Shown piece by piece: positions 1-6,058 of a stretch of 8,254 nucleotides of DNA. A program made the translations under genes and the position numbers. This DNA comes from a virus (taxonomy: Duplodnaviria > Heunggongvirae > Uroviricota > Caudoviricetes). The notes below the pieces were generated by a model. The model made no database searches, was not told where the DNA came from, and saw nothing but the letters and a program-made list of their open reading frames with translations. The stretch's first letter is position 1. Each line of letters starts with the position of its first letter. The stretch is taken from the IMG/VR virus record IMGVR_UViG_2663763413_000004; one strand, 5' to 3'.

Positions 1-83
1 ACTCAAACAGCCAGAAACCACGGCCACGCATCGTTGCCATTGAATGCGAGCAACGCTGCCATGAAAAAGCAAATCATGCTCAT
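1..83 (-). CDS. possible 5' fragment of a spanin-like gene downstream of the endolysin (unresolved)
   Basis: ATG at 83..81 overlaps the endolysin stop TGA (82..80) as ATGA and encodes a hydrophobic start ([14 protein letters not shown]...), but this frame stops after 26 codons (5..3). Another frame encodes ...CVAVVSGC (lipobox-like) with no canonical start. Does not match my recollection of Rz from DLP12; the window edge prevents resolution. Confidence 0.2.
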
Positions 84-584
84 TGTTGCCCCCACAAACA
101 GACTTCACGCTCAATCTCACGGCGAGTCATCAGCCCTTTCCATTGCTTACCGCCAGCGTATGTCCAGCGCCGTAGCTGATCACATGCGCCTTTGATATCG
201 CCCTGGTTTATTTTGCGAAGAAGCGTCGATGTTCTGAAATTGCCAGCGCCCACGTTGCACGTTGTAAACGAATGAGTAAAGAGCGCCGCGCGTTGTTTCC
301 GGTATATCGACTGTGATGTACGGGTTAATTTGTCTGGCGACAGTGGCAAGGTCTTTATTCAGGAGGGCTTTGCATTCTGCTTCGGTATACGTTTTACCGA
401 GCATGATGTCTTTTCCGGTGTGTCCGTGACATACAGTCCATACGCCAACGATATCTTTGTATGGTATGTAGCTGACACCTTCCAGGCCATCGTCACCACT
501 CGGACCAGTGATGAGCACAGACGCTATGGCAACAGCCCCACCACCAATAGCAGCAGCAATAGCCTTGCGTAATGATGGCGACAT
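80..584 (-). pseudogene. rrrD: SAR endolysin (phage-21 R / RrrD-type lysozyme), disrupted by a +7 frameshift
   Basis: ORF 180..584 gives the N-terminal 109 aa, including a Gly/Ala-rich signal-anchor-release segment ([20 protein letters not shown]), and ends ...[12 protein letters not shown] 80..349 resumes from residue 34 as [18 protein letters not shown]...CLWGQQ in another frame. Joining them gives 165 aa, the length I recall for RrrD. The break coincides with a perfect tandem 7-mer at 251..264. Start ATG 584..582 overlaps the holin stop (TAATG), with GAGG upstream. Confidence 0.85.
251..264. repeat. perfect 7-bp tandem duplication (cacgttg x2) causing the endolysin frameshift
   Basis: Plus strand reads gcc-cacgttg-cacgttg-taaacg. 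Removing one copy restores the coding strand TAC AAC GTG GGC GCT GGC (YNVGAG) and a continuous 165-aa endolysin. Confidence 0.9.
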
Positions 585-799
585 TATTCACCTCTCGCAG
601 CCTTACGCTTATCTTCTTTAATCTTGAAATAAAGGTTTGTCAGATACGTCAGCAAGCCAAATACCAGACTACCCAGCACACCTATTGCCGCCCACTGTGA
701 GGGCGTGACTTTATCGAGCAACTGTAAAAACCAGTACCCGGCACTACCTGCTGAGGTGCCATAGGCGACACCCGTTGTTAACTTATCCATGGATTTCAT
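584..799 (-). CDS. essD: class II pinholin (phage-21 S21 / EssD-type), intact
   Basis: 71 aa, [28 protein letters not shown]..., with the Met1-Lys-Ser-Met4 dual-start motif known for S21 and two hydrophobic segments. GAGGTGGGG lies upstream of the ATG; the stop overlaps the endolysin start. Confidence 0.88.
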
Positions 800-940
800 A
801 ACCCCACCTCGCAGACAAAGCGGGTGTAAATTAAGGGGATACTACGTATCGCAATAAAGGCAGAAACGTAACAGATTTGGAGTCAGTGAATAACTCAGGT
901 ATTGGGTTATCAGCTAATATCGAGACTCAAAAAATGGAAA

Positions 941-961
941 AACCCGCTCGACGGCGGGTTT
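941..961 (-). terminator. GC-rich hairpin with flanking A/T runs; intrinsic-terminator-like, stronger on the minus strand
   Basis: CCCGC (943..947) pairs with GCGGG (954..958). On the minus strand the stem is followed by TTTTTCCATTTTTT; on the plus strand only by TTTA. Lies ~145 bp upstream, in minus-strand sense, of the pinholin start. Confidence 0.5.
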
Positions 962-1019: not shown

Positions 1020-1388
1020 CTACTAAATGATATTTGTGAGAATGCCACCGAGTGTTCAAAACACCACCACAAATACATAAGAAAACTTCAACAAATAACC
1101 AATGAATAATTTCCGATGTTATTTTTAGTTTGTTTAAATTAAGCTAAAGAATTATAGAGCGCTTATAAATAAGTGCCATTAATATAAATTAGCTAATAGA
1201 TTTATTTTCGTTCAAACAAGAGCCATGAATAGGATTAGATAGAAAAGGTTCAGATAAAAATAGAGATCTACTTCACAAATTAAATGAGAAACTAAAACTT
1301 ACATCTTGAAATAATCGCATTGATTAGATGAATATTTATCGCGCAGTGACATCATTTTTTAATAATAGTTCAAAAAAAAGGGCGTACA
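1020..1388 (+). promoter_or_regulatory. AT-rich porin upstream region (promoter and 5' UTR presumed here)
   Basis: Long AT-rich tract of the kind seen upstream of classical porin genes; AGGG at 1379..1382 sits 6 nt before the ATG at 1389. No -35/-10 element can be assigned confidently by eye. Confidence 0.3.
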
Positions 1389-2501
1389 ATGAAAAAATTA
1401 ACAGTGGCAATTTCTGCTGTAGCTGCATCAGTACTGATGGCGATGTCTGCTCAGGCAGCTGAAATTTATAATAAAGACAGTAACAAGCTGGATCTATACG
1501 GGAAAGTTAATGCCAAGCACTACTTTTCCTCTAATGATGCAGATGATGGTGATACTACTTATGCCCGTCTTGGCTTCAAAGGTGAAACCCAAATCAACGA
1601 TCAACTGACTGGTTTCGGTCAGTGGGAATATGAATTCAAAGGCAACCGTGCTGAATCTCAAGGTTCTTCCAAAGACAAAACCCGTCTTGCATTTGCAGGC
1701 CTGAAATTTGGTGATTACGGCTCAATCGATTACGGCCGTAACTACGGTGTAGCATACGACATCGGTGCGTGGACTGACGTCCTGCCAGAATTCGGTGGTG
1801 ATACCTGGACCCAAACAGATGTGTTCATGACTGGTCGCACTACTGGTGTTGCAACTTATCGTAACAACGACTTCTTTGGTCTGGTCGATGGCCTGAACTT
1901 TGCTGCTCAGTATCAGGGTAAAAATGACCGCACTGACGTAACTGAAGCCAATGGTGATGGTTTCGGTTTCTCCACTACTTATGAGTATGAAGGATTCGGC
2001 GTGGGTGCAACCTATGCTAAATCAGATCGCACTGACGGTCAGGTCGCCTATGGTAAGAGCAAATTCAATGCCTCCGGCAAAAATGCGGAAGTATGGGCTG
2101 CAGGCCTGAAATATGATGCGAACAATATCTATCTGGCTACCACATATTCTGAAACTCAGAATATGGCTACCACATATTCTGAAACTCAGAATATGACCGT
2201 TTTTGGTAATAACCATATTGCAAACAAAGCACAAAACTTTGAAGCAGTAGCACAATATCAGTTTGACTTCGGTCTGCGACCATCTGTTGCTTACCTTCAG
2301 TCAAAAGGTAAAGACCTTGGTGTTCATGGTGACCGAGACTTAGTCAAGTATGTCGATGTCGGTGCTACTTACTACTTTAATAAAAACATGTCCACTTTTG
2401 TTGATTACAAAATCAACTTAATTGACGATAGTAAGTTTACCAAAACAGCTGGTATTGATACCGACGACATCGTCGCTGTAGGTCTGGTTTATCAGTTCTA
2501 A
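1389..2501 (+). CDS. nmpC: outer-membrane general porin, NmpC/OmpD/Lc family (prophage moron)
   Basis: 370 aa. Signal peptide [23 protein letters not shown] followed by AEIYNKD; conserved porin blocks ([49 protein letters not shown]) and the C-terminal VGLVYQF ending in Phe. Divergent from the lysis genes, as in DLP12. Symbol assigned from recall of the NmpC N-terminus. Confidence 0.9.
2135..2194 (+). repeat. perfect 30-bp in-frame tandem duplication inside the porin gene
   Basis: ggctaccacatattctgaaactcagaatat occurs at 2135..2164 and again, identically, at 2165..2194. It encodes the duplicated decapeptide [20 protein letters not shown]. Confidence 0.95.
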
Positions 2502-2689: not shown

Positions 2690-3073
2690 TCAATTAGAAT
2701 TATTAGCAACGATATCCATATCTAACCGGATATCTAATGCCATTAACATCCCTTCAATTATGCCCTCAGCCTTCTGTAACCTTTTCCCGATATAACCATC
2801 CGAGCAGCAATGCTTACTTGCCAGTGACATGAATGTCATACCACATACATAATAATCTACTAATAAATCGTGTAAATCGCTGTTGTTCTTTTTCAGACGG
2901 GCCATGCACCCGCAAATGATCATCGCGTCATCGTCACAACATTGCGGGCGAGATTTTACTTTTGAAGGAATTAATCCCTTAAAACCGGCGGCAACGGACG
3001 ACCAGGTCACATCTTCATGATTATTAGCCGCCCACGCTCCCCAACGCTCAAGAACCATCTGAATATCACGCAT
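2690..3073 (-). CDS. quuD: late-gene antiterminator Q (phage 82 / QuuD type)
   Basis: [24 protein letters not shown]...[27 protein letters not shown]..., 127 aa from the ATG at 3073..3071, which has GGAG upstream. The ORF track extends it to 3088 ([10 protein letters not shown]); the shorter start matches the recalled QuuD length. Confidence 0.88.
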
Positions 3074-3158
3074 CAACTTACTCCACAAAAATCAGACCAG
3101 AACGCCAATTACAAGCAAAAATCAACAAAACAGTATTAGTTGATTGTTATCTCTGACT

Positions 3159-3299
3159 TCATACTCCTGCTCCTGTCAGGGTTTTGGCGTAATTCTTCAG
3201 TATTCGGTAATCGGTCAAAACAGAACCAGGAAAACGATATAAGCGCAGGCGCACCCAGCGGCGGCGAAGACGCTCTGCCATATAAGACTCAAACATCAT
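3159..3299 (-). CDS. ylcG: small nin-region protein YlcG (46 aa)
   Basis: Hand translation: [46 protein letters not shown]. Its ATG (3299..3297) overlaps the rusA stop as ATGA. Missing from the ORF track, presumably below its length cut-off. Identification from position and the recalled 46-aa length. Confidence 0.7.
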
Positions 3300-3662
3300 T
3301 CATCTCCCAGTTCGGTGATGGTCAGCTCCAGCTTCCCACCTTTGGTAACGGGCATCTTCACAACACGGTAATCAACGACCTGAATATCATCCAGCCAGAA
3401 ACCTGCTTTGGTGAGTGCGTCAAAAGCGGCTTTTTGCAGATTATCCAGGTCACGGCGACGGCGATCCGGCATGTGGCACTCAATACGGATTTTCACTCAC
3501 TGGCATAGCCAAGCCGATATCCAGCATTGCGTTTTTAATGATTCGGGCGACGTTATCGCAGTATGCCTGCCCCTCTGCGCTGACGTGCGTGCGCCCACGA
3601 TTATGGCGGTAATAGCGATTATTGCTCGGAGGCCAAGGTAATGTGATGCTGTAGGTATTCAC
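3296..3662 (-). pseudogene. rusA: Holliday-junction resolvase RusA, disrupted by a +4 frameshift
   Basis: ORF 3480..3662 encodes residues 1-55 ([24 protein letters not shown]...LAMPV) and then stops. ORF 3296..3496 encodes the rest ([26 protein letters not shown]...ELGDE) in another frame. Together they give the 120 aa of RusA. GTG start at 3662..3660 overlaps the ybcO stop (GTGA). Confidence 0.85.
3494..3501. repeat. perfect 4-bp tandem duplication (cact x2 on plus; GTGA-GTGA on the coding strand) causing the rusA frameshift
   Basis: Coding strand reads CCA GTG AGT GAA AAT CCG TAT TGA. Deleting one 4-mer gives CCA GTG AAA ATC CGT ATT GAG TGC CAC (PVKIRIECH), the expected RusA sequence. Confidence 0.9.
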
Positions 3663-5050: not shown

Positions 5051-6058
5051 TTGTATGGTATGTCAATGGCCATGTCGGTCGGGAGTTGTGCAACACCTGT
5101 CCAGACTAATTTTCCTGGTTACACCCCGGGTGCAGATATCATTAGTGTTTCACCCACCAGAAACCAGGTCGATCTCATTGGTGATGTTGTTTATTCCCAG
5201 ATAAAAGGAACTCGTTCTGTCAGACAGCTTCACATGTCAGTTCTTGTCCCGCGAACAAATGATTTAAAACCAGCCATTATTTATTATCCCGGCGGCGGAT
5301 TCATGTCTTCTGAACATGACAAATTTATTGAAATGAGAATGGCTCTGGCTGAAGCTGGTTTTGTTGTGGCCGCTGTAGAATACAGAACAATTCCTGATAC
5401 ATTTCCAGCACCAGTTGAGGATGGGAAAGCTGCAATACGTTACTTGAGAGAACATGCCAGCGATTATGGGATTGATCCTCAAAGAATCGGAGTTCTGGGT
5501 GACTCTGCCGGTGGATGGCTTGCCCAGATGATGGGAACTACAAATGGTGACAAAACCTTTAATAAAGGTGACTTTCTTCAGCAATCAGCAGATGTTCAGG
5601 CAGTTGCCACACTTTATGGGATTTCTGACTTGTTGAATATTGGCGAGGGGTTCCCTGAATCAGTGCAGGAGGTTCATCGATCTCCTGCCGTAACCGAAGC
5701 CTTAATGATCAATGGCCCTGCATTCAGAAGTTTTGCGGGAGCCCCCATAACAGCGTCAAAAGAAAAAGCGCTAAACGCCAGTCCAATCGGACATATGAAA
5801 GGAGTAAAACCCCCATTTCTTATTATGCATGGTAGCAAAGACACTCTGGTTTCACCTGAGCAAAGCGCCAAACTATTCAGGATGTTGAAGAAGAACGGCG
5901 ATAACGCTGAGTACGTTCTGGTAGAAGGGGCTGAGCATGGCGATAATACATGGTATCAGCCAATTATTATAAACAGAGTTGTTGAGTGGTTTACTAAAAA
6001 CCTGGGAACCCCCATAAAAACCGCTACCCAACAACAAAAAACAAACGCTGACCTGTAA
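5051..6058 (+). CDS. alpha/beta-hydrolase fold esterase/lipase (Abhydrolase_3 / HSL-like family); start uncertain
   Basis: Oxyanion-hole motif YYPGGGF, nucleophile elbow GDSAGG, YRTIPDTFPAPVEDG block, and candidate catalytic Asp (HGSKDTLV) and His (GAEHGD). The track start is TTG at 5051; ATGs follow at 5060, 5066 and 5072, none with a convincing Shine-Dalgarno. An in-frame ATG at 5006 is followed at once by TAA (see findings). Confidence 0.85.
   Translation: MYGMSMAMSVGSCATPVQTNFPGYTPGADIISVSPTRNQVDLIGDVVYSQIKGTRSVRQLHMSVLVPRTNDLKPAIIYYPGGGFMSSEHDKFIEMRMALAEAGFVVAAVEYRTIPDTFPAPVEDGKAAIRYLREHASDYGIDPQRIGVLGDSAGGWLAQMMGTTNGDKTFNKGDFLQQSADVQAVATLYGISDLLNIGEGFPESVQEVHRSPAVTEALMINGPAFRSFAGAPITASKEKALNASPIGHMKGVKPPFLIMHGSKDTLVSPEQSAKLFRMLKKNGDNAEYVLVEGAEHGDNTWYQPIIINRVVEWFTKNLGTPIKTATQQQKTNADL

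Follow-up and report, generated by a model that had tools for sequence, protein, structure and literature searches.

The endolysin gene of this phage-21-type lysis cassette is split by a 7-bp tandem duplication. Judged from comparison with related sequences, the duplication most likely arose in error during draft assembly, and the cassette in the organism itself is probably unbroken, as it is in its relatives. The pinholin gene beside the break is whole, and its intactness carries no evolutionary signal whether the break is artefact or real; we found no evidence that an orphan holin has been selectively retained. The window, by which we mean the whole 8254-bp stretch that was analysed, is the entire draft contig AOQJ01000029.1 (GCA_000397385.1), reverse-complemented. 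The late lysis genes that it contains belong to a DLP12-like lambdoid prophage in a UPEC-like E. coli; Table 1 lists the features of this cassette.

Table 1 Features of the lysis cassette and of the three tandem duplications in the window
Feature	Position	Strand	Basis or remark
essD-type pinholin gene (class II holin, S21 family), 71 aa, dual start Met1/Met4	584..799	-	PF04971 and exact identity to ESSD_ECOLI
Shine-Dalgarno GAGGTG, 5 nt upstream of the holin ATG	805..810	-	Direct sequence reading
Intrinsic-terminator-like hairpin followed by a T run, upstream of the holin (tR'-like)	940..961	-	Consensus scan only
Sigma-70 promoter-like site ATGGCA-17-TATAAT (pR'-like late promoter)	1151..1179	-	Consensus scan only, 10/12 matches
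Whole endolysin gene including its displaced C-terminal part	80..584	-	Broken after Val109
Frameshifted rrrD/R21-type SAR endolysin ORF, 134 aa (109 native + 25 out-of-frame)	180..584	-	PF00959 match
SAR (signal-anchor-release) segment, endolysin residues 8-26	507..563	-	Hydropathy and alignment to the N-terminus of 3HDE/4ZPU
Glu35/Asp44/Thr50 codons, E-8-D-5-T motif	435..482	-	Residues present in a stretch identical to 3HDE/4ZPU
Tandem duplication CACGTTG CACGTTG (251-257 and 258-264)	251..264	.	Insertion in the alignment to KC-Dl-1 and UPEC132
Native endolysin C-terminal 56 codons and stop (GAGNFRTST...CLWGQQ), displaced frame	80..250	-	Inside ORF 80..349
Exact 30-bp tandem duplication, in frame, in the nmpC/ompC-like prophage porin gene (1389..2501, +)	2134-2193 (insertion 2134-2163)		Alignment
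Exact 4-bp tandem duplication TCAC TCAC in rusA	3493-3500 (insertion 3493-3496)	-	Splits the gene into ORFs 3296..3496 and 3480..3662

According to the annotation of near-identical complete genomes, the neighbourhood comprises, in order, rzpD, rrrD, essD, an ompC/nmpC-like porin gene on the opposite strand, quuD, ylcG, rusA, ybcO, ninE, ybcN, an alpha/beta hydrolase gene, ybcK and emrE. The start of the spanin gene rzpD lies 10 bp beyond one contig end, and the other end falls inside emrE. The DLP12 module of K-12, essD (ybcR)-rrrD (ybcS)-rzpD/rzoD, has the same neighbours (an nmpC/ompC-like porin on the opposite strand, quuD, rusA, ybcO, ninE, ybcN, ybcK and emrE), encodes an identical holin protein and has in RrrD an endolysin ~96% identical to the one obtained here by repairing the frame. 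It differs from the window in that here the endolysin frame is broken by a 7-bp duplication seen in no other genome and the spanin genes are off the contig. In relatives of the contig's strain the prophage includes terminase, portal and head genes, and the K-12 DLP12 prophage is presumably less complete than theirs. The second reference system is phage 21, on whose holin S the family PF04971 is defined and whose endolysin R21 (3HDE/3HDF) is also ~96% identical to the repaired protein. Phage 21 and the window have in common the MKSM dual start, the SAR N-terminus, the residues E35/D44/T50 and the holin-endolysin order with its stop/start overlap. Unlike phage 21, however, the window holds a prophage copy, set beside a porin moron, and its deposited endolysin is cut after residue 109. 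The cassette itself is the well-known DLP12/phage-21-type pinholin/SAR-endolysin pair, a textbook system.

In such pairs the SAR endolysin is exported through Sec and is then tethered, inactive, in the inner membrane by its Gly/Ala-rich SAR helix, while the dual start of the pinholin gene yields a 68-aa holin and a 71-aa antiholin. A pinholin alone would depolarise the membrane and leave the wall undegraded. The published account has SAR endolysins leaving by the Sec route and building up in the inner membrane in their tethered, inactive state, with the longer dual-start product acting as antiholin; pinholins accumulate until heptameric channels of ~2 nm collapse the proton motive force, which frees and activates the endolysin (PMC9636201).

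The holin gene shows no sign of damage. Its product matched PF04971 ('Bacteriophage P21 holin S') over profile positions 1-63 of 64 with E=2e-35 and 121 bits (cut-off 26), and the ORF opens MKSMDK, with the Met1-Lys2-Ser3-Met4 dual-start motif present. Residues 8-26 are weakly hydrophobic (63% G/A/S/T, peak hydropathy 0.6) and residues 36-56 strongly so (peak 1.9); we would predict these to be the two transmembrane segments, TMD1 and TMD2, and the C-terminus beyond them is charged. By exact-protein look-up the holin is E. coli K-12 EssD (ESSD_ECOLI), recorded on at least 1000 contigs, and 41 phage records hold a 100% identical holin, those of the lambdoid phages 434, mEp460, Ayreon and ev243 among them. 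This allele, shared by K-12 and by viable phages in which it supports plaque formation, is on that comparison a working one and not decayed; the phages presumably carry an intact endolysin gene downstream of it. Inactivating substitutions, which the sequence-only reading had allowed for in the holin, are ruled out by the same identities. S21 forms ~2 nm channels that depolarise the membrane and do not let a cytoplasmic endolysin pass (PMC9636201), and small (~2 nm) depolarising channels, impassable to a cytoplasmic endolysin, would likewise be expected of this holin from its identity with functional alleles.

The endolysin start overlaps the holin stop by 1 nt at 584 (TAATG). Because CACGTTG is present twice in tandem, in the deposited contig as in the window, the endolysin runs out of frame after Val109. 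The duplication is exact, tract analysis found flanking microhomology absent, and all relatives have a single copy. PF00959 matches the deposited endolysin in frame over profile positions 3-84 of 125 only, which falls short of a full-length phage lysozyme domain. With the 7 bp removed, the gene encodes 165 aa with a complete PF00959 match (3-125/125, E=1.3e-45), ~96-97% identical to PDB 4ZPU (K-12 RrrD) and to 3HDE/3HDF (phage 21 lysozyme, R21). The displaced segment translates to a sequence identical to residues 110-165 of the intact endolysin, and the 7 bp are the sole difference from intact relatives, without any substitution. The gene is thus a SAR endolysin family member by descent, with a product that is truncated as encoded. 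The SAR segment (53% Gly or Ala, hydropathy peak 2.2) lies upstream of the break, as do Glu35, Asp44 and Thr50, which we take to be the catalytic triad from established knowledge of R21 and T4-type lysozymes.

Much of what the sequence-only reading had described is borne out by these results: a pinholin with its dual start, its ribosome-binding site and a full 71-aa frame, a partner SAR endolysin split by a 7-bp duplication before its C-terminal third, and a truncated product that keeps the SAR anchor and part of the catalytic region. That product had been given as 109 aa; this is correct for the native residues, but the ORF continues for 25 out-of-frame residues to 134 aa.

We considered whether the split gene might still function, be it through frameshifting by the ribosome, through slippage of transcription at the duplication or through muramidase activity of the 134-aa product itself, and regard this as extremely improbable. 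The SAR segment and the three residues are indeed encoded upstream of the break, but a domain that ends at profile position 84 lacks the C-terminal lobe of the fold, and the arrangement was found in no relative. Residual activity of the 134-aa product is accordingly unlikely on structural grounds of domain coverage. Programmed frameshifting was rejected as unlikely, the site (GTT TAC AAC GTG CAA CGT GGG) having neither a slippery heptamer nor a homopolymer at the duplication.

The origin of the duplication is best judged against the rest of the contig. The window departs from the nearest complete genome, UPEC132 (NZ_CP040456.1), by a single SNP at position 5, which lies 5 nt from one end of the contig, and by tandem duplications, all three exact, of 7, 30 and 4 bp. 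The 30-bp duplication repeats 10 residues and makes the porin 370 aa long instead of 360; its unit holds a hairpin with a 10-bp stem, CATATTCTGA-AAC-TCAGAATATG. The 4-bp duplication cuts in two the gene for the RusA Holliday-junction resolvase. By contrast, seven related complete genomes, which differ among themselves by as many as 112 SNPs across these 8.2 kb, have two 1-bp indels and zero multi-base indels.

All three duplications are private to this contig. Short junction-centred queries found the 7-bp duplication in 0 of 3326 complete E. coli genomes matching the site, the 30-bp porin duplication in 0 of 916 and the 4-bp rusA duplication in 0 of 3217, and the 7-bp junction was not found in IMG/VR or JGI metagenome contigs. 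An exact-protein look-up among 153 billion gene positions placed the 134-aa frameshift product on one contig only, AOQJ01000029.1, and the 370-aa porin likewise on one contig only, against at least 1000 contigs each for the intact endolysin, porin and RusA. Neither the 134-aa endolysin nor the 370-aa porin has a record among the Logan read-set assemblies, which is weak evidence, as the strain's reads may lie outside that collection.

Three multi-base duplications against one SNP would be far outside the ratio of indels to SNPs in this region. Even on a generous bound of three such events per 150 SNPs, a lineage with one SNP would acquire three of them with a probability on the order of 1e-6, and three duplications in every 8 kb of a whole genome would destroy essential genes. 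The contig is small, is bounded by assembly breaks and lies in a prophage region, the lysis region being present in 1-8 copies per related genome. An assembly error is the most economical reading. A local mis-join or a gap-closure error in the draft assembly could have produced a spurious second copy of CACGTTG. The possibility of a sequencing error, which the sequence-only reading had named as fatal to its own proposal, thus becomes the leading explanation, one that we infer from the private break and from the three private duplications set against a single SNP. Several points weigh against it. Short-read assemblers rarely create exact tandem duplications, while replication slippage yields short ones naturally; the hairpin in the 30-bp unit could promote real slippage; and prophage genes do decay, a disrupted R21-type endolysin being found in three of ~70 evaluable prophage loci in a survey described below.

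On these points a real and very recent duplication has a tentative claim, and we consider it possible though distinctly less probable than an assembly error. It would be a private, effectively neutral loss of function, that is, ordinary prophage decay, and the state of the locus agrees with an event of zero age: the endolysin differs from its intact relatives by 7 bp alone, and the holin is identical. The same state occurs elsewhere, in the three disrupted loci just mentioned, and the number of lysis-region copies in related genomes makes complementation in trans plausible. The holin would then be intact simply because no time has elapsed, and the cell would make a pinholin together with a truncated piece of endolysin that stays tethered to the membrane and is inactive. 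After induction, lysis would rest on the SAR endolysins of other, co-resident lambdoid prophages, which the pinholin could trigger, their release needing only depolarisation from any source. What stands against this is that it needs three independent multi-base tandem duplications in 8.2 kb with at most one SNP, where relatives up to 112 SNPs apart have none, and that its product is unseen in other assemblies, read-set assemblies included. Simple decay, one of the two explanations first offered for the split gene, therefore ranks second to the artefact; the break is private to one contig and, if real, has no age.

It is also conceivable, though improbable, that all three duplications are real and record a localised burst of duplication-type mutagenesis, for example by error-prone repair or by slippage during an abortive prophage replication. 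Such a burst would have inactivated the genes for the endolysin and for RusA and added 10 residues to a segment of the porin. The orphan pinholin left behind would have depolarisation, or the triggering of other prophages' SAR endolysins, as its sole output, and the object of interest would be the clustered duplication mutagenesis and not the holin.

The remaining question is whether a pinholin of this type is kept for its own sake. We surveyed 80 IMG/VR loci selected by their endolysin, a sample biased toward intact endolysins, and because of that bias we repeated the survey with 80 IMG/VR prophage loci selected only by their holin. In the endolysin-selected set both genes were intact in 80 of 80 loci, with a 71-aa holin and the same immediate holin-endolysin arrangement. 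In the holin-selected set, ~61 of the 80 had an intact R21-type endolysin, which amounts to ~61 of the 64 with an R21-type endolysin in full view; nine had a different lysozyme (~30% identical), ~7 ran off the contig end, and three had a disrupted endolysin, which was truncated in L126, lost as a gene in L145 and carried a 41-bp duplication in L178.

We then estimated selection by pairwise Nei-Gojobori dN/dS over 146 locus pairs. The ratio was 0.09 for the holin and 0.07 for the endolysin, and within the endolysin it was 0.08 for codons 1-109 and 0.05 for codons 110-165. The part of the endolysin lost here, its C-terminal third, is if anything the most constrained. Because dN/dS is equally low for holin and endolysin and the genes are nearly always intact together, we conclude that selection acts on the holin-endolysin pair, as expected of phage lysis genes. 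The contrast between the two genes that had been proposed as a check is absent over these 146 pairs. On the window's own lineage there are zero substitutions in either gene relative to UPEC132, and a dN/dS contrast is therefore uninformative there; there has been no time for differential retention.

These results bear directly on the proposal of the sequence-only reading that the holin was retained for another role. In its full form, this holds that, once the endolysin was lost, selection kept the pinholin because it serves the host, for example by controlled depolarisation of the membrane, by permeabilising it or by releasing cargo or vesicles, and we judge it very improbable. In its favour, the holin is strongly constrained across relatives, and domestication has been proposed for the DLP12 lysis module as a whole, which would take part in maintaining the cell wall, in biofilm and in modulating OMVs (PMC7918800). 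The endolysin, however, is equally constrained, most of all in the third that is missing here, and it is intact in all of the endolysin-selected and nearly all of the evaluable holin-selected loci; the pair stays intact together, and the broken state is a singleton without descendants. The host role, moreover, was proposed and tested in K-12 for the whole operon, single-gene deletions having little effect (PMC7918800).

The biological weight of the locus is small, since the pair is a textbook one and the domesticated role of DLP12 had been proposed before. Its lesson concerns data quality: what makes the holin look like an 'orphan' is a 7-bp insertion confined to a single small draft contig, which also has two further duplications seen nowhere else, and pseudogene calls from such contigs, made without read support, should not be taken as evolutionary signals.

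Two groups of surveyed loci deserve a separate description. Nine of the holin-selected loci (L119, L129, L140, L146, L155, L166, L176, L180 and L191) combine an identical EssD-type holin with a lysozyme of 173-177 aa that is ~30% identical to RrrD and starts ~400-700 bp downstream, without overlapping the holin stop, as if the endolysin module had been replaced by mosaic exchange. In L178 (IMGVR_UViG_2579778674_000015, ~2853-2856), a draft-derived prophage contig, 41 bp of the endolysin gene (reference nt 329-369) gave two alignments, which indicates a tandem duplication that is also frame-breaking and also lies beside an intact holin.

Upstream of the holin, the candidate promoter lies ~190-210 nt before the terminator-like hairpin. 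By analogy, the two may correspond to the pR'/6S RNA/tR' arrangement of lambda, where the Q antiterminator acts. The porin gene sits between this pR'/tR'-like element and the Q antiterminator gene (2690..3088). A scan of the window with Rfam for regulatory RNAs returned no family above the gathering thresholds.

Further along the contig, a moron-like insertion separates ybcN from the recombinase gene ybcK: the alpha/beta hydrolase gene (5051-6058, +), which encodes BD-FAE/Abhydrolase_3 domains and runs on the opposite strand. Related genomes annotate its start at different positions, and in strain A1.S1.65 a frameshift interrupts it.

Lastly, three loci from genome contigs (L007, L008 and L016) have an E. 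coli-type essD/rrrD pair on short contigs of MAGs that bear the names Bacillota bacterium, Segatella copri and Candidatus Nanosynbacter, with endolysins 92-96% and holins 86-100% identical. These most likely reflect binning contamination by E. coli prophage DNA.
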